Origin: Paraglomus brasilianum
Taxonomy: Eukaryota
Assembly: GCA_910592345.1 (NCBI GenBank)
Contig: CAJVPI010000048.1
Location: 1-64,000, forward strand
Direction: 5' to 3'
Length of the DNA: 64,000 nucleotides
Shown: in pieces, positions 13,100 to 62,897 of the stretch
How positions within the stretch are numbered: position 1 is the first letter of the stretch
Layout of the letters: every line of letters starts with the position of its first letter
The notes under the pieces: model-generated
Told to the model about the DNA's origin: nothing
The model's input: only the letters and a program-made list of their open reading frames with translations
Database searches by the model: none
Made by a program: the position numbers and the translations under genes

Positions 13100-14116
13100 T
13101 TATCTAATCAAAAAGTGAAGGTTTCTTTCCTTGGCCAATTTTTGTAATTTTTTGAAGGCTTCTTGCTTCAAACGACGAGCCGTATTTTCTGATTTGCCAA
13201 GAATTTTGCTTATCTCCGAAAACTTATAATTTTTAGTAAATAGTGATAAATAATTTTTAACCGAGGGTAAATTGTGAATCTCCTTTTTTTCTCAAGAGTG
13301 TTTTTGGAGTAATTCAGGGCTAGATTTATCGCTCAATTTCATCTTTTTTTTTAATTCTTTTTTTTCTTCTTCGGTTGCTAGGTAATAGACATCCAGCAAA
13401 TTAGAAGGTTTTACTTTCGAGAGCAAGCGAACTAACAAGATCTCTTCTCGGTTCCCTAGGGCGTTAATTAAATTGTTAATTTGGATGGTAGTATCTTGAT
13501 GGCGAACTTGCTCGGCAGTCAACTCAGCATTTTCATCATCATGTAAAGTTTCCATTAATGAATAGGATTTGCTTTCCTTGTCATCATTTTGATAATTACT
13601 GTCATAATAAATCACGCTTTTTTCTTTCGTGCCAGACCCTTGATTAATAAATTGATTTTTGTTAATGAAACTTTGCATATATTGTTTAATTCAATAACCA
13701 GCATAAGTAGAAAATTTATTTTTGCTGTTTAAATCAAACTTTTCAACTGCTTTTATTAAAGAGGAAGTTCCCTCGGCTTTCAATTCTTCACGATCAACTT
13801 TTCTTCCGCCTGAGTAATATCCATTAGCAAGATACTCAACCAGATGTTGGTTATAATAAAGTAAAAAACGAATCGCCTTTTTGCCTTTAGCGACTTTTTC
13901 TTCACCCATTTTTTCTAGTTCTTTTTTCTTTTTTTTTAACTCACTTTTTAGTTTTTCAATCTCTCCTGGTGCTATCTGCTTGTTTTTTGTATTATTTTCC
14001 TTTTCGGCAATTTCCTTTTGCAGATTATTGATTGCGAGGAAAATTGTTATTACTGGTTTAGCCGCTTTCAGTAATTCTCTTTCTTCTTTGGCCGTGAGAG
14101 GAGTGATTTTATTCAT
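13100..14116 (-). CDS. rpoD: Divergent sigma-70 family factor, probably primary sigma (338 aa)
   Basis: Region 1.2 LTAKEERELL, region 2 LIKAVEKFD..SKNKFSTYAGYWIKQYM, C-terminal HTH; directly downstream of dnaG. Confidence 0.8.
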
Positions 14117-15767
14117 AATAATTTAAATTTAACAAAAATCTCTTAACGTTATCTAGTTCTTGTATGGTTGTATTAATAATTTTTTCTTTTTGAGGGTGGG
14201 GGGAAGAAAGAACGGAAGTCAAGTCATGGTTGCTGTCAAGTTCATTAGTGGGATAACTTTCCAAATGAGAATTATTGGAGGAGGAAGACATATAATAATT
14301 ATAGATATCATGGTACCTGGTCCGATTGACTTTGGTGGAAAAAAAAATAATTCTTTCACTAGAAAATAGCCAAAAAGTTCGCTCCTTAGCACAGAGATAA
14401 ATTATTTTTTTTTCTTTTTTTTCAATTAGTTCCCAGCCATAAATAGTTTGGCGATGGCGAGGATTGAAAGTCGGGAAATTTCATTTAACAAAATGAGGTT
14501 CAATTTCTTCTTTTTTTCATCCAGTTAAGGAGTTTATTTTTCCAATTAAGAAATCATAAATATTCGGTTTAAATTTTTGAAAAACCTTTGCTATTTCATT
14601 AATAAAGTGGTTGATTCTTTGCGGATTATCCTTGACTTCTCACTTGGCAAAATAGTGGTTGAGAATAAATGAGTAGGGATTTTCTCGGTTTTGGAGTATG
14701 GCCTGAATATTTTCTCTCTCTTGTTGACGGCAAATTTCATCTGGGTCGCCCTGGTAATCATTTTTTACCACTTCGCAGTCAATTTCTTGTAATAATAATT
14801 TTACGGCTACATTGACCGTGGCCTCTTGTCCGGCTTCGTCGCTATCTAAAAAGAGAATAATTCGCTTTTTCAATTCGGTTAAAAGTTTAATTTGTTCTTC
14901 CGATAAATTAGTTCCTAGCAGAGCCACACAATTTTCTATTCCTAACTTACTCAAACTAATGACGTCAAAAAATCCTTCTACTAAATAACATTCTTCTGCT
15001 CGGCTTTTTTTTGCTGATTGATAATTATATAACAAAAATGATTTTTGATAGTATTGATTACTAGGCAAATATTTATATTTTCCTTCTCCAGGTGGTATTT
15101 TTCCAATTTTTCGAGCAGCAAAGGCCACTAATTTTCCCTCTGGATTAGTTAAGGGGATGATTAAATTTTGAGCCGGAAAAAAATCACAAGTTCGATTATT
15201 TTCGGTTATTCAAACCAGATTAGTGGCTAGTAAATCTTCAGGAGAAAAGTTATCATTTTTCTGAGAAAAAAGCAAATTACTTAATTGTCAATTATTAATA
15301 CTACACCCTAAGTTAAAGTAATCAATAGTTTTTTTATCCAGTTGTCGCTCGTTTTGAAGATAATTCAATACTTCCCGACCTGGTTGCGTAAATAGGTTAT
15401 GTTGGTAAATATCAGTGATGAGAGAAAGTAAATAAAAGACTTTATTTTTCTCTTTTTGTTCCTGCTTTTTCTTCTCTTGTAGGATTGAAAGAGAAAAATA
15501 GCCCATTTGGCCAATTTCTTCCACTGCTTCTTCCAGGCTGATTTTCTTATACTGAGCCCAAAAATTAAATATGTCTTTGGCCTTAAAGCCACAAGTAAAG
15601 CAGGTAAATATTTTTCGATTAGGTTCAAAACTACAACTAGGATTTTTATCACTGTGAAAGGGACAAAGAAAAAAAACACTCCTTCCTACCTGTTTTAGAT
15701 TAAAATTTAACTGCTTAGTTAACAAACGAAGGATATCATTAGTGTTTAATAAATCCTTGTATCTCAT
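14109..15767 (-). CDS. dnaG: DNA primase (552 aa)
   Basis: CHC2 zinc finger CPFHSDKNPS..FTCFTC; TOPRIM LVEGFFDV, LFLDSDEAG, DPDE; one code-4 frame. Confidence 0.95.
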
Positions 15768-15877
15768 TAATAGATTTTACAAAAAACTAATCTTGAGGCA
15801 ACAGCCGAAAAAGTTTATCAAGATACTTATTTTCCATTACCATAAGGTTTATTTTCTTGCTGTTTTGTTATATAATA

Positions 15878-16048
15878 TTATTTTAGTCTTCTGCTTAATT
15901 CTTTTATTTCTTTCTTTAAATCATCAACATCATACTCTAAATCTTTAATTCTTTTGTCTTGTTTTTCGTAGCACATTTCAACACGGCTTTTGCTACTATG
16001 TCATTGTTTACAAAGAGGACAAGTTTTGGTTTCATAAACTTCATTCAT
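15878..16048 (-). CDS. Small phage-region protein, CxxC plus coiled coil (56 aa)
   Basis: MNEVYETKTCPLCKQWH...DLKKEIKELSRRLK*. Confidence 0.6.
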
Positions 16049-16057
16049 AATATAGTT

Positions 16058-16324
16058 TTATTTCTTCACCTTCTCTCATCCAGTAGGTTGTCATTGACTT
16101 TTGGGCTTATTTCCAGTTTTAACACTCACTTTGCCAGCAATACCACTCGCCGCACTACCACCAACGCCACTAAACAATAATCCTCTAATAAAAGCACCAA
16201 ACACAGTTAATAAAGCAATTCCAATTAAGTATCAAAAAGGACGAAAACCTCCAATACTCATTCCTTGCCAATAGACCACTATTTTAGTGATGAGTTCACC
16301 ACAATATTTAAAGATTGCTAGCAT
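16058..16324 (-). CDS. Phage small membrane protein (88 aa), virion-protein candidate
   Basis: MLAIFKY...FWYLIGIALLTVFGAFIRGLLFSGVGGSAASGIAGK; TM followed by Gly-rich basic tail. Confidence 0.7.
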
Positions 16325-16433
16325 AATAATTAATTTTTAGGTATTAAACAACTCAAATAAACACTATATTCACCTATACTACCACCAAAAAAAACCATAC
16401 TTTCACAAAACATACATTTCTCAAACATGATTT

Positions 16434-16757
16434 TTAATTCCCCGTGCTAACACTAGGACCTTGATTACTACCTTGGCTATCACTGGGAGGACTTTTTCAA
16501 TAACTTACTACTCAACTAATATTTATGAGAGCAAAAATACCAAGCACGGCAATATTAAGGAGGGGAGGAAACGCAAACCAACTATAAAGCATGTTGTAAT
16601 AGTAAATAAATACTCCGCTACAAGTGCCAGCAATAATTAGAATGTATTTGTTTTCTCAAAAAGTTAATAAGGTTTTTTTAGCATAACCTCAAATTCATTT
16701 GCCAACTTCTTTAAGGGCTTTAACAATAGTGGCTCCAATAGCGGCTTCGGTTAACAT
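16434..16757 (-). CDS. Phage membrane protein, 2 TM (107 aa)
   Basis: MLTEAAIGATIVKALKEVGKWIW...; two hydrophobic segments; TAA 16434-16436. Confidence 0.65.
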
Positions 16758-16805
16758 GATATTATAATTTTACTGAATTATTTAATAGAAAATACTCCAT
16801 AATTT

Positions 16806-16964
16806 TTACTTACTGTTTTTAATGGATTGTCAAATATCACTTAATTTTCATAAGTAATGGAGTTGAACGCACACAATAATAAAAATAGCGATAATAAGAA
16901 TTACTATCATTCATTTAACTCAGTTAGGATAATTACAATTACATTTATTTTTGGATTCTGACAT
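16806..16964 (-). CDS. Phage single-TM protein (52 aa)
   Basis: MSESKNKCNCNYPNWVKWMIVILIIAIFIIVCVQLHYLW... Confidence 0.6.
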
Positions 16965-16970
16965 AATTTT

Positions 16971-17261
16971 TTATAATTCTATTTTTTCGCTTTCATCCTC
17001 ATCCTTTTTCTCTAAATTTACTTCTTTTTTACCATTTTCTAAATCCTTTTCGGCTTGTTCTAATTTCTTTTCTCATTCTAATTGTTGTTCTTGCTCTTTT
17101 TCTTTTTTTCTCTCTTTACGATAAAAGATAACAAAGTCAATTATCATCAGTAAGAAAGTAATCGCCAAATAAATCCGCAAAGGTCATCAATTACCAATCG
17201 CGGTGGGGAGGATACAGAGGATAAGTCCCGTTAGTCAAAGAAAAAAATTTTTACCATCCAT
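16971..17261 (-). CDS. Phage protein, 2 TM plus charged coiled-coil tail (96 aa)
   Basis: MDGKNFFLWLTGLILCILPTAIGNWWPLRIYLAITFLLMIIDFVIFYRKERKKEKEQEQQ... Confidence 0.65.
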
Positions 17262-17268
17262 AATATTT

Positions 17269-20200
17269 TTATTTGTTTTTTTTAGTAGCAGCGGCCATAA
17301 TCGCAATAATTATCCCAATAAATAAGAAAATGTAAGTTAGGGGATGGCTAAAAACTACTTCTCAATAAGGTTTATTGGATTTCATGCCTTCTTCCATTCC
17401 CGCAGGTTTCATGGAACCAATATTTTTAAGTTTGTTAATCGCATTTAGACTATCGGTAAAGGAGAATTGACCGCTAAAATTATTATCAGTTTCAGTTCCT
17501 ACGCTTTCGTCTCCTGCTCCCACGTCATATTTGGCACCACTTTGTCAATAGTTAGTTCATTGCGAGGCATTTTCCCCAGCAGTAAAGCGTTGACCTTCCT
17601 CTTTAAACATTTTTTCTTTTTCTTTGGGAGTGGCTTTTAATCATTCTTCGTGTCTTTTTCGACGCTATTCGGTGTCAACACCAGGAGGACCATAACGAGG
17701 ATTTTTTTCAATTCATTCTTCCACAATTTTATCTCTTGGGTCAGGTTGGCGTTGTTCGGATGGTTTTTGTTCGTTTTCTTTGGCCTCTTTTTCTCGTTTT
17801 TGGCGGGCTTTTTCTGCCTCTCGATTAGAGGTTATTTCCTCCCACAGTTTCTTTTTTTGCTCCTTGGTTTTGGCTTCCTTGTAGACCTTCTTTAATTCTT
17901 CCTTTTCTTGCTCGGTAAAAACTGGGTTATGGTCGACCATTTGGTTATACATGGCTTCGGCACTTTTTTCGTGAATGGTATCGAACATTTTATCTAACAT
18001 CTCCGCCATTTTGGTCGGATTATGAGAGGCTAATTTTTTGAGAATGTTAGCAATCATGGCGGGGTCAGTATAAGCCGTTTTTAGGGCTTCATATTCCTCG
18101 GGGGTTATTCCTAAATCATTGAGGTCATTAGGTTTAACATTATCATCGGTGTTTTTTTTGGTTTCGGGAGTTTCGTTTTTGACTGGTTCTTTTTGGTCGG
18201 GAGTTAGTTCGGTTATTAGTTCTAGGGCGTCGGGACCTAGGCGAACCACAGTTCCTTTTAGTTTACCGACTAATTGAGCGAGGGTTTTGACATTGTTGGC
18301 AGGAGTTTTGCGGTTGATAAATTTTTCGTTAATTTCTTGGGTGGAGTAGTTAGAAAAAATGAGGTAGTGAGAAAAACCATTGTCGGAGTTGATGGTTTCA
18401 ATGTCGTCTCCTCATCAATCCTGCTTATCTTTTGAATAGTTTAATTGGTTGGTAATTCATAGGATAGAACGATTGGGGCCTGAGCCTCAATTGGCTATTT
18501 TACCATTTCCCATTGCCTTAAAACCACCAAATAATTTTTTTTCTTTTAATTTGCCAATAAAATGTCCTGTGTAATCCAAGTCAAAGGCTTTATCATAAGT
18601 TCGCATTCAACGGGTAAACATCATAGATTTTTGCCTTACGCCAGGGACGCCAAATTGCACTCCTCCTTTTTGGGCTCCTGACCTCCTAAAAGGCCAGTAA
18701 TTAAAACCTAGTTTCTTACTTCTTACATCCTCTTCTTGTTTTCCAGTAATTAATAATTTGGTCTCTTCTCCTCCTTCTTTGGCTGATTCAGTGTTTTTAA
18801 CTAATCGCTCATAACCTTTAATTGGTTCGGTTTTATCGCCGACTTGTCTTTCTAGGTTCGTAGGTCAAAAGAAATTGTGGAGGACATTGGAATAGTCATC
18901 TTTTCTTTCTACTTGCCTTAAACAAAGGAGTAAAGTAATGAAATCACCTTCGCCATGTCGTAGAGCAGAAGCAGTGGCAGGGTCTTTTACACTTCAATCT
19001 GGGAAGGTGCCACCTTGAAAAGGCGAGTGTTCAATATCCATATTAAACCCCATACAAATCCAAGGTAATTTGGCCGCTTCTTCCTTAGTAATAGTTCCTA
19101 ATGGCATACCTAAACCAGGAGAGGGAGTAAAAGGTTGATTATGACCTTGTTCTTTGGAGTCTTTATCTAAGGCGCCAGAGAGAGAATTCAGGGTCTCATT
19201 GAGGTCCGAGGAGTTAAAACCAGTTTCAACAGGAGGCTTAGTTTCTTTACCTTTTAGTTTGTCCTCCGCGGCTTGACGGGAGGGGGATTTGTCCCGTTTA
19301 GTGTTCTTGGGTGGCTCCGTAGGCTTAGGTTTGTCATTATCATCTATATTATCATTTTTATTATTTTTTAATTCCTCCTCCTTTTGTTCTTCGGGTTTGG
19401 CTTCTCATTCTTGGAATTCTTGTCTTAATTTGGTGTCATCTCCTTCATTTAATACTCAGTCCACATCAACTTTTTTAATATCTCTTAATCATTCAGCAAA
19501 ATTAGCATCTTTCGGTTTTAAACCAATATCAATTCATTCCCTCACTTCGGCATAAGTAAAACCTTTATTTTCTCAACTGGCTTGTAAATCAGGGTTATTT
19601 TTAAAAGCCTGGTTAATATTCGCTCAATCGGGGTTCTCTCTTTGGCGGCGTTCTTCTTCCTGGCGTTGTCTTTCTTCTCTTTCTCGTTGTTCTTTGGCAT
19701 AGTCGCGGTGAAAACCATCAGTGGTAGGAATTTCCTCTAAATTGACGGGAGTATCATCAGGATTGCCACTGACTACTCCCACTTTAGCAATTCAGGTTAA
19801 AATCTGTTCTTGGTAAAAGTTAAATTCGGTTTGATTTTGGGGTGGTGGGGGGTTATCGGAACCGAAAATTTTGACGAAAAATTTGTCCGCATTCTTACCA
19901 AATTTCTTTTTTAATCTATCTTTGACATCACTCAGAAAATTATTTCATTGGCCTTGACTGGTAAAACCCGGGACATCTTTGGGTATATAATCTGAGCGGA
20001 CAAAAGCGTCTAAAACTTGAAAGCGAACTCGTAAAAAATAGGCTATTTGAAGATATTTTTTGAGGGCTTGTAAACGAGGACTAGGATTATTTTGTAAATC
20101 AGGGTAATTTAAACCTGCTCGACTGAGGACACAATTATCAACCGCACTATATAAGCCCATACGAACCGAGGAAAATAATTGTTCAAAGGAACCACCACCA

Positions 20201-20625
20201 AAACCACCTAATCTTTTGAACTGGTCGTAAAAAAGTCGCACGGCTTCAATAAATAAGTCAGTATTAATTTTAAATCTCTTATAAACCAGAGCATCAGTGC
20301 CGACATTTTGACCTTTGCCGGGAAAATGTTGCTCTAATTCTTGGGCGACTTCTTCAAACTCTTTAATGTTATCCTCGTTGAGGATGGTTGGGAAATTTCG
20401 GACAGATTGTTTGTTTTCGCCTCTTTTTTGGAGAAACTGTCAAATAAGGGGCGAACACTTTTTTAGTCCAAAAATGAAGTCTTTTTCCCCTTTTTCGGTT
20501 AATTGAGGTAAACCGCCATAAAAATCATTTCAGGCAGGTCAATTCCGCTGATATCACTGATAAGCGGCTAATTCTTGCTCGTTTTCTAATTGTTCTAAAT
20601 CTTTTTGCGTAAATTTGCTAACCAT
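17269..20625 (-). pseudogene. Large C-terminally anchored phage protein (pIII/adsorption-protein candidate), 1118 codons with one in-frame TAG at 17665-17667
   Basis: Hand translation in code 4 shows no TAA/TAG from ATG 20625 to codon 987. The frame then stays open 131 codons to a TM (YIFLFIGIIIAIMAAA) and KKNK*. Confidence 0.7.
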
Positions 20626-20951
20626 ATTTTTTTAAATTTGTTGCTGTTTTTGCTAAATATTAGGGGGTTTATTAAGGATTAGTCAGGGTTTTACTTCTGA
20701 CCTTTCGGGGAGTGATTTGGGCTTGTTTTTCTTCATTATATTTCATGGGAGAAGTGATTTTTTAATAATTTTCCAAAATGGCTAATTTTGGTCTATTGAA
20801 GGTTAAGGGCTACCGAAGCATTATTATCAGGCACTTTGGCTAGAATAAAAAAAGAGCGGAACAGAAAGGGTCGAAAGGAGAGGAATAAACAGGTTATTTT
20901 TTTTTACTTTGTAAAACCATTTTTTTCAGGTATAAAGGTTTTAAAAAAACC

Positions 20952-21257
20952 ATGAAAAAAATTAAAAATAATTGAAAAAATTTTGAGTTTGAAAAAAGCG
21001 AAGTTGTTCCGGTGAATAAGGCCGTTGAGCCAATTGAAGTTAAGGTTGAAATTCGCCAATGTGACTTCTGCGGTAAGATAATTACTCGCGACTGATGCGA
21101 GGATGATGAAGTCGATGAAAATGATTTTGCTCGAAAAAGTGTTTTAAAAAGGGTAGCGACTGATATGGAGACTGATGAGATAACTAATCTCGCTCTGTTG
21201 CTCTGATTTTTAACGGCCTTTTTCGCTGTTTCCCATTACGCTCAACACACGGCCTAA
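20952..21257 (+). CDS. Counter-oriented phage protein with CxxC (101 aa)
   Basis: MKKIKNNWKNFEFEK...RQCDFCGKII...; the only clear + strand ORF inside the element. Confidence 0.55.
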
Positions 21258-21355
21258 ATCATGACTGCCGCCGCTCAGGACTGCGTCCTAGTAAAGGAGA
21301 TAGCGGTCGGAATAGTCGGAACAATAAACCTGGTCTCCTTTAACATTGGCCGCGT
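21247..21355. other. Multi-stem, pseudoknot-forming intergenic element in the prophage
   Basis: Complementary pairs 21247-54/21348-55, 21271-75/21302-06, 21277-81/21285-89 and 21292-300/21334-42. Confidence 0.55.
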
Positions 21356-21382
21356 TTTTTATTCACTTTACTCAACCACCGA

Positions 21383-21553
21383 TTAAATAATTTTGACTAG
21401 AAAACTTATTATCGAATAAGCCAACATTCCTCATATAAATAGTTCTTCTCATCGCTCAGCTTGTTCCAAAACAAAAATCTTTTCTCATTTTTTTCAGCAA
21501 AAAATTATCCAAACCACCAGAGCAATGGTGTCTAAAAGTCATAAGTCTAACAT
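21383..21553 (-). CDS. Phage small 2-TM protein (56 aa)
   Basis: MLDLWLLDTIALVVWIIFCWKKWEKIFVLEQAERWEELFIWGMLAYSIISFLVKII*; start overlaps the ATPase stop. Confidence 0.6.
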
Positions 21554-22521
21554 TTTTTATCTTTTGGGCTCGCCGTTTCACGGCTCCCAGGGTTTTTATC
21601 TTTGCTATTCAGCAAAGAGGACTTGGGTTTTTTTGTAAATCACTTTTTAACTTTTTGTCAGAAAGTAGGAGTTGGTTTTTCTTCCACGATAAAGAATTCA
21701 TCCTTGATAACGTCTTTTAAGGCATTAGGGACAGGGATTTTTCCTGGGGGAACTTTAAATTCTTTTCTATTCTTGTTTAATAACGGCAATAAGGCTTTAA
21801 AGAATTTAGTGTCATAATTTTGAAAATCTTTCTTTTGGAGGAAAATTTTGTATTCTTTAATATTCAGTCTTTTTTTGGCTTGGTCGTAATCACCACCACT
21901 AAACAGACTAAAAAAACCGCCTTTTTGGTAAGGGGCCATGTTAGAGGACCATTCCTCCGCTAATTTAAGGTCTTCATAGGCTTCAATTCTTAACACCGAA
22001 CACCAGGGCAAAAATAAAGGGGTGTAAATACCTTTAATTTTAAAGTAGATATTAGCGATGTCGCGAATTTCCACTCACAATTGATTGGTTCTCTGGACGG
22101 AAAAGAATACTTTTTTATCAAAATGGCGAGCAAAAACGCAAAAATCAGCAATACCTGAATTAACCTTGCGGTTTTTTAAGTATTCAGTGCCGCGAAAATA
22201 AACATTCACTTCATCGACAAAATAATTGGCAGGCTCTTCGGGTATCTTATATCTGCCCCGCACATCGGCATAATCTAATAATAAGGTCTTATTTCCTTTT
22301 TTCTTATGTCAGAAATTAGTATAAGTATTATCTAACCGATTAACTAACCAGGAAAAAAGGAGACTTTTTCCCTGGCCCAGCGAGCCAAATACCACCGCTA
22401 AACTTACTTGTTCCTTTACTAAACGCTTAAATTGATATTGTTTTCATCAGATAAGGAGAAATTGAACTAGTCCGCAGATTAAGCCGATTATTAGACATCA
22501 TTTAATTATTGTTCCAGTCAT
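21547..22521 (-). CDS. Zot/pI-like filamentous phage morphogenesis ATPase (324 aa)
   Basis: N-terminal TM, Walker A FGSLGQGKS, Walker B YFVDEV, family motifs ARHFDKKVFFSVQR and IRDIA. Confidence 0.88.
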
Positions 22522-22530
22522 TTTTTTACT

Positions 22531-22980
22531 TTAAATAGTTTCTTTATCTTCTTCTTTGCTCTTAGTTTGGCGATGAATTATCAATAATAAGACAGGTAAA
22601 ATCAAAATACTTCAAAAAGAACTGGTTATCTGGTAAACAGTAAAAGTTAGAAGAATCGCAAGACCGCCCAAAAAGAAAATTTTGGCAAGTTCTAAATCTG
22701 TTTTTCTACTTCTTTTTATTGCTTTACAAGCGTTATTACACACTTTTTCACAGCAATGACACCTTTTTTTGGTTATTTTTTTTCTACTTTTAAAAGCATC
22801 GAAAAGACAAGCCAAAGTTAAACCAAGCACTAATAATGTTAAACCAATTCCAAACCTAAATATGATTTTTTTGTCTTGCTGGTTAATCTTGGTTAAACAT
22901 TCTTCATGAAAATAACCTCTTTCTCTTTTTCACATTTCCTCACCACTAGGGATTTTTTGATAACATTTATTACATTTCAT
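22531..22980 (-). CDS. Phage membrane protein with Cys/His zinc-finger-like segments (149 aa)
   Basis: MKCNKCYQKI...FHEEC, TM, CHCCEKVCNNAC, then two more TMs. Confidence 0.7.
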
Positions 22981-23014
22981 AGTCTTTTTTTTGTTGATTT
23001 AATAAACTTCTACT

Positions 23015-23230
23015 CTACCATTCTAGACAACTAAGGATAAATTTCATTGTATTTCAGACTAATCAGACTAGTTTGTAGAGTATAAAAACTACAATTAAAG
23101 CACTAATTAGGACTACCACCTGTTCCATTTGCGGATTAAACGGAGCATTTAAACCTTGATAAACTATCTTGGAAACAAAACTCCGCACAAAACTTAACGA
23201 ATTATTTCTAAATAAATTGTTGTAGTCCAT
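23015..23230 (-). CDS. Phage single-TM protein (71 aa), coat-protein candidate
   Basis: ...QVVVLISALIVVFILYKLVWLVWNTMK...; start overlaps the upstream stop (TAATG). Confidence 0.65.
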
Positions 23231-23409
23231 TATTTTTTCTTAAACATTCACCGCACTAACCAATAAGGAGTTAAGGCTAACATTACCAAGAGCCAAAACC
23301 CAAACAGGGCGGCAATTAATCAAATAATATCTTTGGCAAATTGACCCTCAATTTTGGCTCCGTTCATAGTCTCGACCAACTTTAAAAAGGTTTGATAAAC
23401 TCCTGTCAT
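23230..23409 (-). CDS. Phage single-TM protein with basic C-terminus (59 aa), coat-protein candidate
   Basis: MTGVYQTFLKLVETM...IIWLIAALFGFWLLVMLALTPYWLVRWMFKKK*. Confidence 0.7.
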
Positions 23410-23433
23410 ATGGATATAGGGGGTGGTAAACCC

Positions 23434-23637
23434 TTATTTTTTAGGGTCATTTTTGTCTCGGTAAAGTTCGGCATAACTTTCCAACTGTCCTTTTTTACCT
23501 CAACTTCTTTCATTTTCTAAGTCTCTTAAAAATCCACTATAAAACACTTCCTCACCACTTAAATCATTACTGATTTTTAACACCACTTTTTTATATTCTT
23601 GGTGGTCTTTTTCGTATTTAACTATATATACTTTCAT
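23434..23637 (-). CDS. Small soluble phage protein (67 aa)
   Basis: MKVYIVKYEKDHQEYKKVVLKISNDLSGEEVFYSGFL...; function unknown. Confidence 0.55.
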
Positions 23638-23769
23638 ATTTTTTTTCTATTTTTTGATATTCCGCTCAATGTTGTTGATACTGAGGACAAACATATTTTT
23701 CTAATGGGTCCTCTTGGGCTTTTTTACAACCTCAACAACCCGAGCGATAAATTAATTGAGACATAATTT

Positions 23770-23925
23770 TTACTTTAAAATCTCGCTTTCAACGACTTTC
23801 TTCGCTTCATAATCGCGGAACTTGTTGGCTAGGCAGCCATAACAAGCCCCTAAATTGGGGTTTCAACGGACTCAAAATTGTTTGGTTTCTTTTTCCTTTT
23901 CACAATAGATACAAATTCTTATCAT
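23770..23925 (-). CDS. Small CxxC...CxxC zinc-finger protein (51 aa)
   Basis: MIRICIYCEKEKETKQFWVRWNPNLGACYGCLANKF... Confidence 0.6.
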
Positions 23926-23930
23926 TTTTT

Positions 23931-24050
23931 TTACTTATTTTTTCACATGTTAATTATCACTCATAGACAAATAATTAATCCTGCTCCTCAAAAAAATATC
24001 AACTTGATAATTTCTCAATTTTCTTTAATTTTTTTTCAAATCTTTAACAT
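23931..24050 (-). CDS. Very small single-TM phage protein (39 aa), pVII/pIX-sized
   Basis: MLKIWKKIKENWEIIKLIFFWGAGLIICLWVIINMWKNK*. Confidence 0.55.
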
Positions 24051-24087
24051 AACACTTTGCTAGCACATATTTTATCCTTGGACGTTT

Positions 24088-24270
24088 TTAGAAACCAGTG
24101 ATTAGTTTTCGAGTAGTTTTGACCCCTAAAAATAATAGGTAAAAACCCAACGGGAGTAAAAAAACTGGATTGGCTTGTAAGAAGCCACAGAATTTCATCA
24201 CTACCCCGTGGTTTTGGTCAAAAATAATTTCATACGCATAACCAATCGACTGTTTAATTTCGTTAATCAT
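24088..24270 (-). CDS. Major coat protein candidate (60 aa)
   Basis: Amphipathic N-terminus, TM (VFLLPLGFYLLFLGV), basic C-terminus (KTTRKLITGF), the pVIII-type layout. Confidence 0.65.
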   Translation of the reverse strand: MINEIKQSIGYAYEIIFDQNHGVVMKFCGFLQANPVFLLPLGFYLLFLGVKTTRKLITGF

Positions 24271-24543
24271 ACTTTTTTTTGCTTTTCTATTTTCCGTATC
24301 GCGAATGGGAGGGGAGTAAAACTAACAACCCTTTTTTTAATCTTTTAGGTAAAACATTCTCAACTTTTTTTCTCCTTTTGACCCCCGCTTAACGAGAAGG
24401 GGAAGGGAGAAGGAGAGGAACCGCCAAAACTCGGACTGATTAATCCTTTGGATAAAATATCCTTGAATGTTTTTCACAGTCATTAGTCTTTTTCATTTAT
24501 CCATTAGGAAGAGGGAAATTTAACCTAAAAACCCTTGCTTTAC

Positions 24544-26343
24544 TTAATAATCGGCGTATCTTTTGATAGCATCATCCGCAGTTAATCCTCAGGAGTAATC
24601 ACCTCCGCTAATTTGTGACCGAATTTCTTTTAAGTAAATGTGATTGTAAAGCACTTCGGTCGGGATGCTTTCGCGTCATTCTTCACTGTCGGCACTTTCG
24701 CCAATTTCCTCTAATGATTCATACTCATTAAGGGCTTTATTTCAGGGCAATTTAGCCTCTTGGGCGAATTTGATATAATCAGTGTCTTGGACCTGGTAAT
24801 CTTGGAATTTAGCGAAGGAGGGAAGACTTATTTTTGCTAAAGCGGGTAAAATATGAGTTTGATAATCAGAATAAGCCCTTTTTCCTTTAAACTCAAATTC
24901 TCACCTGATAATGGGTTCGGTGTGGTGGTCTTGACGGATAGGACAGTGGAGTTTTCAACCTTGACCTTGGATTCAAATAGCGTCTTCGCTAGTATCGCAA
25001 GGTTTTCAGAATTGGTTTTGTTTGATTTTGCTTTGGCTGGAATAAAAGAGACAAAGTTTTAAAATTTCGGTTAATTTCCAGTCTTTTTGCTTAGAAAAAT
25101 CCGGTAATTTTTCTTTTTCACGGAAAATTTTTCGCACTTTCTTTTTTAACTTTAAATCTTTGTCAAAATAATCGGAGAATTCTTTTTCCACTTCTTCGGT
25201 GAAGCCATAATCGTTATTGATAAAGACTTTGGAACTTACTTGCGGTTTTTGGACTTTGGCAACAATAAAAGGCTCACCATTCTCCCGATAACCATAAATC
25301 ACTCTAAAAAATTTATAGATGCTCATGCCTTTTAGCAAGCCGACTTTTTGGCTTAGTGCTTGGTCTTGTCTCATTTTAAAGGCTTTAACCAAATATTTGG
25401 CTAAATAAATTACTACTTGCTCGGCGGTTTTAATGGGACGGCCATGTTTACCTTGGCGGTCTTTGAAATGGCTAACTCTTTTAATGTCAACTAATCCATA
25501 AGGTCAAAGGTCATGGGCGATATAGGCTCGGTGGTCTCAACAACCTAACGGGGAACCCTGGTCGTCATGTTTTCCTAGTCCACAACGTTCATGCTGATAT
25601 TTAGGCGGCAGGAAGTCCGTAGTTAGCATGTGAATATGTCAATTACGACGGCAATCATGCTTAATTTGACAATGACAAAATTTTTGGTCGTGGTTTTTCC
25701 AACCTTTTTTCTTGGATTTTTTTCCTTGTCAATGGCAGGGAGTTTGACATTTATGGAGTTCGGGAACGGCCACTCATTTAAAGTTAGTGGGTTTTCAGAG
25801 TTTTTGGATGGTAGTGATAAACAAAGCAAATAAATCGTTCACGCCGTCGATTTCTCGGCCTAGTCTTTTTTTCGCCGTTTTCTTTTCCGCGAAAAAAGAG
25901 GTAGTTTCCAGTGGAACAGTTTGGAATAAATGCTCTTGTTGGCAGTTTTCTACCGGGCATTGCTGGTCTTGTCGTCAAGGAGCAAAAGAAAAACGCATTT
26001 CTTTTTGCTGATTGTTAAAAGTTAAAGTGAGAAAATAAAGGCCGCGTTGAAAATCCTCCTCCGTGAAATTCATTAAGCACTTATTATAGAAATTCCGCAA
26101 CGAAGCGTAATAATTGCCCTTAAAGGTTAATTCATGAATCAGTTGATAAAGGGCTTTATCTTTTTCCTGGTCGTGAAAAATAGAGGTGCGTTTAGGTTTG
26201 GAACCTTGCCGATAAATGCCTAAGGGAACATTACCGAAAGAGACTTGGGCTTTTTGGACTTGTTTGCCAAAATCAGTGATAGAGAAATTGGCAAGTTTGC
26301 CAGAACTAGCACTATCCGCAAAGAGATTAGTCAAGCCTTCCAT
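24544..26343 (-). CDS. HUH-superfamily rolling-circle replication initiator (599 aa)
   Basis: One code-4 frame; motif I FLTLTF, motif II WHIHML, motif III YLAKYLVK with two tyrosines. Confidence 0.9.
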
Positions 26344-26443
26344 ATGTGGAGTTTTTGAAAGGTTGAAGGTAGATTCATTTATAAAATATATATAAAATTA
26401 AATTAATACAATAAATAATAAATACAATGAATATCATGCCAGC

Positions 26444-26457
26444 AAAAAAAAAAAAAA
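26444..26457. repeat. A14 homopolymer upstream of Rep
   Basis: 14 consecutive A, the longest homopolymer I noticed in the window. Confidence 0.85.
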
Positions 26458-26634
26458 CAAGTATCTACTTTGAGAAAAAATTAAGAGAACAAAGTCATTG
26501 CCAACCCTGTGCCCTGTTGAGGTAGGACGCAAGCAAAAAGTAAAATGAACAAAATAATTACTAGATTAGCCAAAGCAAAAATAATGTTTTAAAACAATAA
26601 TCAATACAAATAAAAAAATTAAAGAATAAATATT

Positions 26635-28071
26635 ATGTCAGATCAATTTAATAATCAAAAGTGTAGCAAGTGTAACTCAAAGTATGTATATCCAGAGCAA
26701 AATAAGTTCTCTTCCGGTTGCGGTGACCATGAACACTTTATCAAAAAAAACGGAAAACTTTTTTGCGTTGATTGTTTAATATCCGAGGGACATGTTAAAT
26801 GTTCTAGGTGCCACAAGTTAATTACGCACCGAGGGGAACGGGATATTCCAACGCGGATTGTGTTTTTGTCGAATGAACACGAACATTGTTGTGATATCGA
26901 CAAATACCCTTCGACTTTTAGTTATAGTTGTGAAAGTTGTTGGAGTTCGGGGCGACCACACTTTCGTAATAAATGTAAAATTTCTTTTTGTCCTCAAAAG
27001 TCTCATTACGATTGTGTGGATTTATGTAAACAACATTCTAAGCCATGTCAAGGAATATACCATGGAAAAAAATGCAATTTTCCGATTGAAAGTAATGGAG
27101 GGGATCTTTGTAAGGGTTGTCAAAACCACACTGAGGAAGCTGAAAAATGTTACGAAAATTTTTGTCAAGCCCAAGCCAAAGCCCAAAGTTGATGGAATAC
27201 TCTTTCTAATTCCGAACGAGAAAGAGAATGTGAGCGAGTGGTGAAAAATTTAAAACTTGGAGAATACAAGGGGGGTAAAATGTGAAGAGGAAATAAGGAT
27301 ATGGAAGGTTACGTTTGCTTATGAGTCCCTGATGGTAGTTTTTGACAAATTAAAAACGGAAAATATGTTTCTGGCCAACCACACTTAGTTCCATATCAAA
27401 TAGCGGAGGAGTTTTATAAAAAAATGTTTGGAGATGATTCGTTAGTGTTAGGAGACTTCCAAGTTGTAATAAAAAAAGATAACGACGATAATGATGGAGA
27501 TAACTCACCCGCTACCTCTAATCAAGCAACTCCATCTTCTCAACCGATAACTAATTCAAACGAAAAAACCGATAATTCAGTAAACCCAGGCAATTCTCCG
27601 AAGCCAAATCCAGAAAAAGATAGTCTGTCCGAAGAAAAAAATAGTAAAGGAGACAACGCACCTAAATCTACCGAAAATTCGCCTATCAAAACTGATAATC
27701 AAACCCCAATATCTCAATATCTCAGGGACATTAAGCAAGTAACTTTAACTTCAGATGGCAATTTAATTATTGAATTTAATAACTCAGCAAGTAACCATTC
27801 AACAGGTAAGGTTATAACTTCTGAGCAAATAAGCACTAGTCAAGAACTCCAAAAAATTAAAAATTATTGCCAACAAAATGGCAAAAATAGTTTAAGTCAG
27901 CAGGAATTAAGTAATATTCTTGGTGTTAACTCCACGTCATCGACTGAAAAGCCTCCCACTACAAATAATATTCTTTTAGTAGGAATTATAGGCGGAACTT
28001 TGGCCATTGGAATAGGCATTGGATTGCTTTCAAAAAGGAGAAAAAATAAAAAAAAAGAAAAGTTAGTATAG
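26635..28071 (+). CDS. Cys-rich tail-anchored hypothetical protein (478 aa)
   Basis: Track ORFs 26635-27192 and 27424-28071 join via TGA. Many CxxC pairs, low-complexity linker, shared pre-anchor module, TM and KRRKNKKK. Confidence 0.8.
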
Positions 28072-33633: not shown

Positions 33634-34668
33634 TTATTTATTTCCACCAGTGCCATTATAACCATCTCTAAACGAATTAAATTCCTCAATTTTTTGTTTT
33701 TCTAAACTATCTAATTCATCCTTGGTTTGACAAAGAATATATTTATAACAAAAATAATCGCCAGAATATCAATCCTTCGCAAATTCAGCATTTTTAGTAT
33801 TTATAACCTCACTATTTGGAAAGTGTTGGTTTAGTCTTACGCCTATACTTTTAGCCTGCCCTACATAACACTTATTTTTCGTTTCATTTCGTATAATATA
33901 AACTCCTTTTTTATCATTAAGGTTCCGAAAGGAAAAGTTGGAAGCAAGTTTTAAATCCTTTCAACCATCATGAATATCTTTATCTCACCATATTATTTCT
34001 TTTGCTTTGGTTCTGTGATAAAGATTTCAATTAAAACCAATAGTCTTATTACATTTTTCATTAAATTGTTGTATCTCTTTCAGAAGAAGAGAATTTTCTT
34101 GATCGATTTTAATTTTATGGTTCCCATTCCACTCTTTATTGTTTTTATTAGTTTCCTTATTTAATAAGGCTTGCTTCTGGCTATTATAACCGATAAATGA
34201 AAGACCAAGAGTAAAAGGAGCAAAAAATAAACGAAGTCAAAAGTTGCTTGGTTCTTCATTAAAATCCGTTTTTTTAAACGAATATTCTCTTTTCTCATTG
34301 TGATAGTTTCGTATTTTTCGTTTGGTATCATCTATTAAATCTAAAATCCTCTTTAACTCTATTTCCTTTTTTCTTCATTCTGGAACTGTTGGAATTTTTT
34401 CAAGGATAAGTAAAATGAATTTTCTACTTAAATCTAATTTCAAAATGTCTTCATTCACAAACTTTATAGGATTAATTGTCTTATCAAAATTTCTTACTAG
34501 TTTTGTTCTTTCTGAATAACCATCATATACTGGATATTTAACATAATTTCTTTGTTCATATCTAACTATTTTTGGAGTGTATGTACGAAGTTTAATGACA
34601 AAAGTTAATTTGTTGGTTCTTTTGTCAAAAGATAAATTGGTTATTCAGAGTTCTTTAATAATTTTCAT
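33634..34668 (-). CDS. GIY-YIG nuclease family protein with central hydrophobic segment (344 aa; missed by ORF track)
   Basis: C-terminal KGVYIIRNETKNKCYVGQAKSIGVRLNQH...LEKQKIEEFNSFRDGYNGTGG; hydrophobic FWLRLFFAPFTLGLSFIGY mid-protein. Confidence 0.85.
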
Positions 34669-37995: not shown

Positions 37996-39432
37996 ATGAA
38001 TAAAAACATAGAAAACCAAAAAATAAAAGTAAATAATGGACAAGAATTAATACAAAAAGCCCGAGAATATAAAAATTCGGGTGGAGAATGGAAGTTGCGA
38101 GAAAATTATTTTCAACTTCCAAGCAAAAATAATGAAAAAAGTGAATACGCCAAGTGAGGAATTGTGGTTGGCAATGGTCAACAAGAAGTAGAAATATATT
38201 CAGAAAACAACGAGATGTTAAGAGGAAAAAAAACTGAGAATGATTGCCTTGTTAATTTAATAGAAAGAGCAAGTTCATTGAAAGAACTAAGACGAGTTTT
38301 CCCCGAAATCGGCCAATTTCCCTTTTTATCTTCTGCTAATATTAGTGAAAGGTTAGACGCTACAAGTTATAAAAAAGTAAAAAGAGAAGACGGAGAACAT
38401 GAATTATACCGCCTTTTGGTAGCTGAAAACTCTTGGCACTTAACGCAAATATTAGGCCATTATGTTCGAGAAAATGAAAGCAAAATCTATCAATCTTCTA
38501 ACCCTCATTTTTCTGGTTGAGTAGAAATAATTGACGGTCAAGACGGAAATATGTATCTTTATGTTGGTGAAAAAAACAACAATAGTGGACGAGAAATTAA
38601 AATCGGCATTGAAAAAAATGAGTATGAAAATAGTGGCGGATCAAAATACGATAATCCTCACGAACGATTGGAAGGTCTTTGAAATCTTTTCACTATTAAC
38701 CGACCATTAAATTCAAATGAAAAAGAAAAATGTTATCGAAGTTTAGAAAAAATGTTTCAAGAGCAATGGCCACACCGCGAAAGACTTTGCCGAGGGTATT
38801 GAGAAAGCGTGCTTGAAAGAATGGAGGAAAAAGCGAATTATTGAAATGAAAAAGCTCAACAAGCGGAACGCCTTGGTAAGGAGGAAAACAGAAATTTCAC
38901 TCTCGCCGAAGCCCGTGCTGAAGTAATTAGAAAAGAATTAGATGAAAATAAAAACATTAAATTTTGTTCTGATAAATGCCAGCATTATTTATCAAAAAAA
39001 GCTCCGAATGAACCAGTGCAGGAACAGAATTCTCCAACTCCAATTTCACCAAAAACCGGCGGAGCAGGAAAAGCAGCAAGTAATAAAAATAACCAAATTA
39101 GCGACACCGAAAAATCTCAAATTCTTCAATACTTTATTAATAAAAGCATTAAAAAAATTACTATAAACAATGGAAAGTTAGTAATTGAATATAATAACAG
39201 CACTACAAAAACCATAGAAAACAAAGACCAGCAATTACAAAAATATTATCAACTTATTCAAACCTTACCTAATCAATCCCTTTCTCTTTCTGAATTACAA
39301 GAGAATAAAACTAATAATCCCACTTCTACTCCCAACAGAGATAATACTGGAGTTTACGTTGGCTTAACTATCGGTGCCTTTATCTTGGGAGGAACATTTG
39401 TTTACTTCTTGGCTCGTAAAAAGAAAAAATAA
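37996..39432 (+). CDS. Tail-anchored hypothetical protein (478 aa)
   Basis: One code-4 frame; module IKKITINNGKLVIEYNN, then TM and RKKKK. Confidence 0.8.
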
Positions 39433-39955: not shown

Positions 39956-41473
39956 ATGACAAGAACAGAAGCAAGAATTATAACTTACATAAGTTCAAAA
40001 AAACAAGACATAATAGCAAACAATGATAACTTTTCTTTCGATGTTTTACCTTTTTGTTTTGAATGGAATGGAAAAAGAGGAGAAATTAACCGAATAGAAA
40101 TAATAAATGATGGAACCAGGCACAATAATGAAAAATCCGCAGGAAAAAATTATCAAAAATACCAACAATTTGCTCCAGATGCAACTCAAACTGATTCTTG
40201 GTCAAGCGGTCAAATAAGTATTTCTTTCAGTGAGCCAGTAGCCAAAGCCGAGATAAAAGGACAAACTCTCATTATTGACGGGAACCATTGAGTAGACATG
40301 TGGAAAGGTATCTATATTAACTATTTTGAGTTAACGGAAATAGACGAGGATTATAGAAAGTGAGAAGATTGCAAACTTAGGCTGAAAATTAAAGAAAGAA
40401 AGATAATCAATAACAGCAATGTTTTTTTTGCTCCTACTATTAATGAATTAATAATTAATTTTGGAACTACGGGAGCAGGGATGCATGAATATGCTTCCAA
40501 ATTACAAGTTGGGAAAAAGTATTGTTTCAATGGAAGTAATTTAGAAAATACCAAGATTTTGGTCGCTAGGAATGGCGATAAAAAATTAGATATAAACAAT
40601 TCTGCTGATAATATTCCAGAAATAAGAGTTTTCAAAGAAGAACCCGAAATAATTACCCATGGACCAGTAACACCGAAAAAGCCACTTTCTTCCACAATCA
40701 AAGAAAAAATACTTCGTAATTTAGATAAAATAAGTTTCGACCAAGCCGGACATTTGGCTAATGCTGAGTTACTAAGAGACCCTCAAAATGAATATGGAAC
40801 TCAACAAAAAGAAAGCAAAGGAGTTTATCAAATAAAAATTGACAATGAAGAAATAAATCTACGAGATTTTGACAGGCTTGAGAATGAAAAGAGTTGGTTT
40901 GAAATTAGAAACGCCATAGTCAGTAGCATTAAACAAAATATTTCAGATTGGGAAATTAAAAAAGATAAATATAATGTTGAGTGTTTGGAAAACAAAAAAA
41001 ATGGAGTTAAAGTTTGAAAAGTTGCTTTTTGTGGACTAGTATTTGAAAATGGAGAGCAAGATTGAGCCGAAATTGAAGCATTATTAAAAGGTTCGAAATC
41101 TCCTATTAACAAAGAGAAAACAACAACAAATGATCTTGAATTAGAATGATTAAAAAACATTTTCCAAGAATTAAAGATTAGAAAAATAACTTTCGAAAAT
41201 GGCAGATTAACTATTGAATTTAATAATTCTCAAACTACTTCTTTTGCAAACAGCGATATTAAAAAATACAATATTTTAAAAAATTATTGCCAAAATCATG
41301 ACCAAAAAGAAATCACTCGCCAAAGTTTAAATTTAGAGGAGGAAAGTGATACCTCTGCTAACCCTAATCAAAATAAAAACAACAACCAACTTGCTATTGG
41401 TATTGCCATCGGTGCTAGTGTGGTGGTTCTAGTAGGAATATTTGTTTACTTGATTAGAAAAAAAGAAAAATAA
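39956..41473 (+). CDS. Tail-anchored hypothetical protein inserted between rplM and rpsI (505 aa)
   Basis: One code-4 frame; module IRKITFENGRLTIEFNN...KNYCQ, then TM and RKKEK. Confidence 0.8.
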
Positions 41474-62719: not shown

Positions 62720-62897
62720 AATGAAATATTTTAGCACTTAAAAGTAGGCGAACAAGCATTTATTATCTATTGTAAATTACCTGTTATTAGTAGACTTTTA
62801 ATGCTTAAAAAAGTAAAAAAGTAAAATTTGGTGAAAAATGATTAATTATCAAACTATTTCTCAACTAAAAATTGGCCAGATTTAACTATTCCTTTTT

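Follow-up and report, generated by a model that had tools for sequence, protein, structure and literature searches.

How a phage that carries neither an integrase nor a transposase comes to lie in a bacterial chromosome, and where such a phage should be classified, are the questions raised by a block of about 10.5 kb on contig CAJVPI010000048.1 of the Paraglomus brasilianum assembly GCA_910592345.1. The analysis covered positions 1 to 64,000 of the forward strand of this contig (64,000 nucleotides, here called the window). A preliminary description, made from the same letters, had proposed an extruding single-stranded DNA (ssDNA) phage integrated in the genome of a wall-less bacterium using genetic code 4, and had taken its HUH replication protein (Rep) as the mark of a novel lineage. 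The first part of that proposal is upheld here, in that the block is very probably an integrated, plectrovirus-like prophage of the Tubulavirales type, kin to SVTS2 and SVGII3; the Rep as a mark of novelty is given up. We consider it probable that the account as a whole is correct, namely that a plectrovirus-like prophage was inserted by its own Rep into the genome of a Mollicutes-related endobacterium (MRE) and is present in the window as a defective copy.

The whole prophage occupies 15819..26387 on the minus strand (~10.57 kb). Its left end is a TATCTTG heptamer, and its right end, placed by register with the related locus L009, is less certain; both edges, at 15819 (left) and about 26387 (right), thus lie a little outside the interval 15878-26343 first proposed. 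The host neighbours are dnaG (14109-15767) and an orphan gene of 478 amino acids (aa; 26635-28071), with ~16 minus-strand genes between them under code 4, and the phage block beside dnaG thus stands as first described. Translated with table 11, the block yields just four fragments of at least 100 aa, in line with the earlier remark that it is nearly invisible in the standard code; the TGA/TGG counts are 14/2 in the Rep gene, 7/3 in the pI gene and 5/3 in host dnaG. The element has a GC content of 35.8%, versus 32.2% in the remaining window. Integrase, transposase and secretin families were absent from the 18 element open reading frames (ORFs) scanned (Pfam and PHROGs, E<=0.1), as the preliminary description had it for integrase, DDE transposase and secretin, and its count of about ten small membrane proteins agrees with the transmembrane (TM) segments found in 11 of 14 small minus-strand ORFs scanned, plus one plus-strand ORF. 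Synonymous codon changes exceed non-synonymous ones in the core small genes (seven of eight pairwise comparisons).

The phage identity of the block is carried by genes for morphogenesis. A pI/Zot-family ATPase of 324 aa (21547..22521, minus strand) has the N-terminal TM segment reported earlier (residues 5-23), together with Walker A (GSLGQGKS) and Walker B (YFVDE) motifs. It falls into phrog_11343 (E 2.6e-22), the PHROG family that also holds SVGII3 ORF2; a search of 50,697 phage records returned the two SVTS2 records alone (g1, E 3e-13), its profile matched SVTS2 g1 at E 1.4e-29, and hhalign related it to plectrovirus pI at 99.5%. The Pfam Zot family was recovered in 20 of the 21 ATPase members, and the VirB4, T4CP and FtsK families in none of the 21 (E<=0.1). 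A grouping with VirB4, VirD4 or FtsK, which the preliminary description had named as the result that would speak for an integrated plasmid, was accordingly not what the sequences gave: they group the ATPase with plectrovirus pI. Structure comparison was less informative. In a viral fold library, Inoviridae Zot proteins took ranks 3, 5, 7 and 8 for the pI model (ranks 1, 2, 4 and 6 being unnamed), and the search of solved structures had no power to discriminate, since the scores of RecA (Z 10.3), HerA (9.9), VirB4 (9.4) and Neisseria Zot (9.3) differ by no more than about 1 Z unit; the pI profile found no match among PDB sequences. In the pI tree, 14 MRE-type rows are split from three Spiroplasma rows with support of 100/100.

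A TM protein of 60 aa (24088..24270, minus) is orthologous to SVTS2 g12, SVGII3 ORF7 and SpV1 ORF7 (phrog_29787, E 1.6e-4; hhalign 97.4% to SVTS2 g12 and SVGII3 ORF7), and from this coat-like relationship we infer a candidate major coat protein. In the profile by the ICTV, the international committee for virus taxonomy, the legend names SVTS2 g13 as the major coat protein (PMC8295915). The ORF at the g13 position here, a single-TM core ORF of 59 aa (23230..23409, minus; 19 members), has no significant similarity to g13, the link being positional only. The adjoining single-TM core ORF of 71 aa (23015..23230, minus; 18 members) takes the position of SVTS2 g14 and SpV1 ORF10, with a weak link to ORF10 of the SpV1-type virus R8A2B (E 8.5e-4 among 47 reference proteins).

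The Rep gene (24544..26343, minus) encodes 599 aa, including conserved insertions rich in Cys and His as well as a long C-terminal portion, and is referred to the PF23343/phrog_3419 family. That it specifies a two-tyrosine HUH Rep, as first described, was borne out: motifs I-III are present (FLTLTF, WHIHM and YLAKY), and residues H236, H238, Y313 and Y317 are invariant in all homologues aligned (16/16 close and 14/14 broad), as are many Cys and His residues of the insertions. PF23343 and phrog_3419 are the families of SVTS2 g5, and the SVGII3 rep belongs to phrog_3419 (PHROGs scan alone); hhalign relates the window Rep to SVTS2 g5 at 89%, and a quick Rep tree with long branches left the SVTS2 link unresolved. 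Five distant Reps (P0061, P0069, P0083, P0089 and P0092), retrieved by profile search, pass the PF23343 cut-off and match phrog_3419. No match was obtained by tblastn against phages and plasmids (72,556 plasmid records) at E<=1, nor to the Y2_Tnp family, and the Rep structure model (pLDDT 46.7) retrieved nothing from the PDB under E 0.001; the top PDB row, rudivirus ORF119, had E 0.26 and was not counted as a fold match. The protein is a predicted rolling-circle replication initiator of the plectrovirus Rep family.

Several observations on these Reps may be recorded here. Together with P0068 and P0077, the five distant proteins make up a set of long Reps of the same family at 21-29% identity, on contigs of 2-36 kb. 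Upstream of Rep (window 26344-26387), a conserved AAYGAA shares the Rep reading frame in several relatives (xNE[FS]xF), so that Rep may begin farther upstream, at a codon other than ATG. A 52-aa ORF in another frame (window 26220-26378, minus) begins at the same upstream spot.

The closest known systems are SVTS2 (NC_001270; genus Suturavirus) and SVGII3 (NC_073761; genus Virgulavirus), both of the family Plectroviridae (PMC8295915). They share with the window element code 4, a PF23343/phrog_3419 Rep with a YLAKY-type motif III, a phrog_11343 pI, a phrog_29787 coat-like gene with two small TM genes and then pI behind it, CTTGAT in the stretch that precedes rep, GNA-triloop hairpins and the lack of any annotated integrase or transposase. 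They differ in genome length (6.8-7.9 kb, versus 10.6 kb here), in Rep length (309-345 aa, versus 599 aa with Cys/His-rich insertions) and in the likely host, which here is fungal-endobacterial; identity x coverage with the window element is only 15-17% for pI and 25-32% for the coat-like protein, and the window element has a C-terminally anchored protein of 1.1 kaa with no detected link to ORF1 or g4. The ICTV legend assigns adhesion to SVTS2 g1 and maturation to g4 (PMC8295915), whereas in the present comparisons g1 is the homologue of the ATPase. The SpV1-type Vespertiliovirus (R8A2B, X51344) likewise integrates into host chromosomes and has pI, ORF7 and, weakly, ORF5 and ORF10 homologues, but carries a transposase in the place of Rep (PMC8295915), whereas the window element has a Rep and no transposase family in 18 ORFs. 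The preliminary description had used this very contrast, HUH Rep versus SpV1 transposase, to set the element apart; the distinction does not hold, because the ICTV profile lists rolling-circle plectroviruses (PMC8295915), and SVTS2 and SVGII3, whose Rep belongs to the family found here, are themselves classified as plectroviruses.

Among the traits of Plectroviridae, the element has a wall-less host with UGA read as Trp as in Suturavirus and Vespertiliovirus, a pI ATPase, a coat-like TM protein and a Rep. Members of the family are rigid, non-enveloped rods rather than flexible filaments, leave the cell by extrusion and have circular, positive-sense ssDNA genomes of 4.5-8.3 kb that encode 4-13 proteins (PMC8295915); the window element exceeds this range (~10.57 kb, ~16 ORFs), so that we call it plectrovirus-like, and the relative L018, at ~5.1 kb, fits. 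The genus threshold is more than 50% identity x coverage in the major coat and maturation proteins (PMC8295915), and the values found against Suturavirus, Virgulavirus and Vespertiliovirus (pI 15-17%, coat-like protein 25-32%) lie below it. By these comparisons, the element is best filed as a divergent, new genus-level clade of a known kind, close to Plectroviridae.

Part of this ground has been touched on before. A ‘historical invasion’ of MRE by a plectrovirus is reported in the accessible portion of one paper (PMC4916391), and in GenBank the RV_VA103A orthologue of pI goes under the label ‘plectrovirus SVGII3 orf 2 transmembrane protein’; the MRE Rep orthologues are labelled ‘hypothetical’. 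The accessible portions of PMC11423566, PMC13375369, PMC6813254, PMC6668415 and PMC3698928 give no account of this element. In the available extracts of the literature on plectroviral sequences in MRE, we found no genome map, ends or integration route, and no description of Rep-mediated plectrovirus integration; primary and earlier papers may cover part of both.

Searches with pI brought up relatives as 24 proteins, 22 metagenome loci and 3 loci in IMG/VR (two of the latter overlap metagenome loci), with gene order maintained wherever contigs extend. Two pI scans of GTDB genome contigs returned no relative, and IMG/VR yielded nothing when it was scanned with the Rep alignment, with a degenerate Rep motif or with the DNA motif of the ends. 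Homologues that carry a name are assigned to Ca. Moeniiplasma, to MRE-type Mycoplasmataceae, to one ‘Spiroplasmataceae bacterium’ or to Glomeromycotina assemblies; because of these labels, the host is likely an MRE of soil fungi. A check for other copies had been suggested in the preliminary description, and relatives with the same gene order do lie at four different host sites: between dnaG and the orphan gene (window), in an LRR (leucine-rich-repeat) gene (L008), beside a gene that by its sequence we take to be ksgA-like (L018, a compact relative of ~5.1 kb or slightly more) and beside an orphan gene (L009). In RV_VA103A, one MRE population, an identical Rep occurs on two contigs, and close strains are present in the soil runs X2 and X3, over prophage and flanks alike. 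In run X1, the probable source, one unitig (12620-26408) spans the left junction at a depth of 3210, below the 4090-4990 of the right flank. Circular junctions and raised coverage, which had also been suggested as checks, were thus not seen in these contigs, in which nothing points to replication of the element.

The ends of the element bear most directly on how it was inserted. In its own sense, its last bases are TATCTTG (15819..15825, minus), a likely Rep nick or termination site and the sole sense-strand copy in 10.6 kb. The heptamer closes a conserved terminal block, TTATGGTAATG-NN-AAATAA-N-TATCTTG (15819..15845, minus), common to L008; window and L008 are 85% identical in the 20 nt 5' of the heptamer and 37% in the 30 nt 3' of it, and in L008 the frame of the host LRR gene breaks right at the heptamer (position 9413). 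The same seven bases mark the upstream ends of L009 (288) and L018 (370), where AATAATATCTTG stands 8 and 11 nt ahead of the conserved AAYGAA that precedes Rep. Sense-strand copies number five in 72,035 bases, four of them at ends; four of the six ends examined have one, against a background of one per 11.8 kb. The nominal P for the heptamer at ends is ~1e-7, a value inflated because the motif was picked post hoc and two of the ends are homologous phage DNA; for two of three upstream ends alone it is, by our own arithmetic, ~3e-4. The equivalent of the upstream heptamer in the window (26388..26394, minus) reads TATATAT, a poor match that would represent the host target side. When Rep N-terminal extensions were back-read, the heptamer could stand in register in P0029 and P0030; just Tyr and a hydrophobic residue were retained in P0028 and P0036, and P0065, P0073 and P0084 were incompatible. 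Exact terminal repeats of at least 15 nt were absent from 26 loci, and no long direct repeat flanking the element was found among the repeat families listed. The preliminary description had also suggested a search for empty sites; a contig of run X2 joins 15816 to 26632, with the left break 2 nt from the heptamer, and is an apparent, if weakly documented, instance.

By analogy with the family, Rep would nick the plus strand and yield ssDNA circles, the small TM proteins would coat these circles at a single membrane, and pI would extrude rods without lysis; a secretin would be unnecessary because the host is wall-less. To integrate, Rep would open the circle at TATCTTG|A and link it with a strand of host DNA, in the way that the IS91 transposase acts at CTTG. 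This proposal draws on IS91, on SVTS2 and SVGII3 and on the RepH origin, which we take to be that of pC194. The circular ssDNA made from the RepH origin has the junction TATCTTG|ATA, according to the accessible text of PMC7072734; IS91 inserts beside CTTG without duplication and with an ssDNA circle as substrate, according to that of PMC13181058; and in SVTS2 and SVGII3 two GNA hairpins precede CTTGATTAA in the stretch from the last structural gene to rep, which is the same interval where the window element would be opened. From these three parallels, Rep-mediated integration at TATCTTG appears to be the best guess, to which we would give an even chance. The likeness to IS91 lies in the HUH enzyme and would extend to the ssDNA circle and the layout of the ends (target CTTG | element ... 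cleavage motif | host), as far as the available part of PMC13181058 describes them; the differences are that the window Rep has no Y2_Tnp match, that virion genes are carried and that transposase activity is here only presumed. Somewhat short of even stands a broader proposal, that an unnamed but widespread genus or family of extruding phages in fungal endobacteria uses a zinc-laden HUH Rep both as its replication initiator and as an IS91-like integrase at loosely matching host sites. The hairpins and CTTGATTAA of SVTS2 and SVGII3 (L004 2235-2280 and L029 6539-6582) form in their own right a candidate double-strand origin.

A number of observations weigh against this account, in addition to the inflated P value. 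The window Rep scores 19.1 bits against PF23343, below the cut-off of 27.8, and the host is placed by the labels of homologues. At the ends, the window has no upstream heptamer; the upstream heptamer of L018 is 3 nt out of register, its downstream 150 nt have none, and another CTTG lies in a hairpin after its last gene. Past the heptamer, window and L008 still match at five of seven nt, and no strong hairpin (-4 to -6 kcal/mol) forms at the window heptamer, unlike in SVTS2 and SVGII3. The empty-site joint is weak (one contig, a short side of 28 nt and 85% likeness), and no circular back-joint was found among the 15 of 22 joints shown (X1, contigs only). Virion, circle and nicking were none of them observed.

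Two other routes into the chromosome must be weighed against insertion by Rep. CTXphi-type inoviruses have no integrase of their own, carry pI/Zot, small coat proteins and a rolling-circle Rep, and use one dif site. Host XerC/XerD-like recombinases might likewise act here at degenerate dif-like sites, with TATCTTG in the att core, which we regard as unlikely, if the stronger of the competing proposals. Most MRE have XerC/D copies, for which a role in phage integration has been suggested (PMC10507103, in the accessible part), the right end in the window has an AT-rich 11-6-11 layout with a central TATATA, and similarity persists for a few bases beyond the heptamer. In L018, a perfect TTATGTTAAAT lies 20 nt ahead of the heptamer; this is the XerD arm of Escherichia coli, and it may not be the MRE arm. 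In the four remaining ends, only 7-9 of 11 positions agree with that arm, near background (perfect in one of five ends), copies with one mismatch occur in the window at the frequency of chance (8 found, 7.4 expected), and four different host sites, one of them in the LRR gene, with no consistent dif arms, misfit the single dif of CTXphi. (A perfect TTATGTTAAAT at 34536-34546, minus, inside a GIY-YIG-like gene at 33634-34668 [TIGR01453, E 7e-11, below cut-off], is probably due to chance.) Slightly less likely still is homology-driven or illegitimate recombination with older plectroviral remnants, in which the ends would merely be the start of a linear rolling-circle intermediate and Rep would join nothing. 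Such a process would suit the plectroviral fragments scattered in Spiroplasma genomes at few shared sites (PMC3698928, in the accessible part) and the degenerate upstream junction of the window and, by protein back-reading, of P0028, P0036, P0065, P0073 and P0084; it does not suit the downstream ends, which are sharp at the heptamer, or L009 and L018, which have different host sites and divergent Reps but the same 12 nt, AATAATATCTTG, upstream.

A further alternative concerns the nature of the element itself, which might be an integrated rolling-circle plasmid or mobilisable element with a conjugative or FtsK-type motor, its small TM ORFs forming a transfer pore. The tie of RecA, HerA, VirB4 and Neisseria Zot in the fold search and the absence of particle evidence would allow this reading, which is nevertheless highly improbable given the Zot matches of 20 of the 21 ATPase members and none to VirB4, T4CP or FtsK, two morphogenesis genes directly orthologous to those of virion-forming plectroviruses, and a Rep that matches none of the 72,556 plasmid records.

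The plectrovirus-like prophage in the window is itself likely to be defective, unable on its own to make infectious particles, because a stop codon removes the anchor of its large protein. The preliminary description had listed a large anchored protein; the ORF found here ends after 986 aa without a TM segment (17665..20625, minus), at a single premature TAG (17665-17667), and the C-terminal TM anchor lies behind it in the in-frame remainder (17269..17664, minus), in a 113-aa ORF from 17610. The gene is unbroken in L008 (1095 aa) and P0105 (1118 aa, 92.6% identical), where the residue at the TAG position in P0105 is Glu; readthrough was considered and judged unlikely because relatives have a sense codon there. 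In L002, the same gene is broken at a different point, and in L018 the counterpart is an anchored protein of 237 aa. Despite its broken large gene, the window copy keeps Rep and pI intact. The intact P0105 had no match in PHROG, NCBIfam or ESM Atlas, and homology of the anchor to plectrovirus ORF9 was dropped at a probability of merely 27-42%. Residues 331-412 of the large protein (~19390-19635, minus) recur in P0047 (E 4e-11), a protein that is unrelated in other respects and has a C-terminal piece of Rep fused to it, and are possibly a captured host module.

The remaining small ORFs, all on the minus strand unless stated, complete the inventory. Downstream of the coat-like gene lie a 39-aa TM ORF (23931..24050), a conserved CxxC-rich ORF of 51 aa (23770..23925) and a conserved soluble ORF of 67 aa (23434..23637; 17 members). 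The last, which had no family match in the scans made, is by size and position a candidate ssDNA-binding protein. An accessory 3-TM ORF of 149 aa (22531..22980) occurs elsewhere in L001 and L006 only. Beyond pI are an accessory 2-TM ORF of 56 aa (21383..21553) and, on the plus strand, an antisense ORF of 101 aa (20952..21257), which is partly conserved in L001 and L006 and uncertain as a real gene. At the far end follow a 2-TM ORF of 111 aa (16971..17306), a 52-aa TM ORF (16806..16964), a TM core ORF of 107 aa (16434..16757), present too in L002, L008 and L018, and a TM core ORF of 88 aa (16058..16324) with a weak likeness to SpV1 ORF5 and SVTS2 g2 (R8A2B ORF5, E 2.9e-4; hhalign merely 10%). 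The series closes with an accessory ORF of 56 aa with CxxC and a coiled coil (15878..16048), missing from L008.

Within the pI 3' end lies a GNA-triloop hairpin, GCCGT-GAA-ACGGC (21572..21584, minus), the stem of which is altered on both sides in L008 and L009 with pairing kept; a second (21277..21289, minus) is shared with L001 and L006, and hairpins of this kind are also found in SVTS2 and SVGII3, as well as in R8A2B, which has no Rep. Because it is kept by pairwise changes and has a counterpart in R8A2B, the pI hairpin is a candidate packaging signal or complementary-strand origin. Promoter and terminator scans gave results at chance level, and neither an Rfam match nor a tRNA was found in the window. 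The related prophage L006 carries a tRNA-Phe(GAA) gene (3051-3126) between pI and the large protein; none was found in the window copy or in 13 other loci scanned.

Elsewhere in the window, a type I restriction-modification-like cluster (1890-7081, minus), judged by translation only, includes an HsdR-like protein of 982 aa and an HsdM that seems to be in two pieces of 189 aa and 546 aa, the second of which continues into an HsdS-like part. A methionyl-tRNA synthetase-like gene (43336-45279, minus) has, again judging by its translation, an apparent NUDIX-like domain inserted mid-gene. A coiled-coil, repeat-rich protein of 2936 aa with a C-terminal TM segment (53927-62737, minus) has an internal segment that we take, from an H...D...Q...C motif, to resemble an Ulp1/C48-type protease domain. 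An orphan family with a common C-terminal region and TM anchor (11454-12512, 26635-28071, 37996-39432 and 39956-41473) is dispersed among housekeeping genes.

MRE are uncultured, wall-less bacteria that live inside soil fungi, mycorrhizal ones among them, and their genomes are rearranged to an unusual degree; a phage clade that continues to insert at fresh sites is a candidate contributor to this plasticity, as well as a possible DNA vector for hosts without genetic tools. The ends described here bear on how tubulaviruses lacking integrase and transposase enter chromosomes. If host Xer recombinases integrate the element, the finding would be a modest extension of the range of Plectroviridae. 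If Rep does so, viral rolling-circle initiators and IS91-type transposases would be joined in one enzyme. Under the broader proposal of a clade with a Rep of both functions, chromosomes would be entered without integrase, DDE transposase or host Xer, and the same route could account for the integration of SVTS2-type plectroviruses; intact copies would make rods in the fungal cytoplasm, with the variable anchored protein of 240-1120 aa serving for adsorption.

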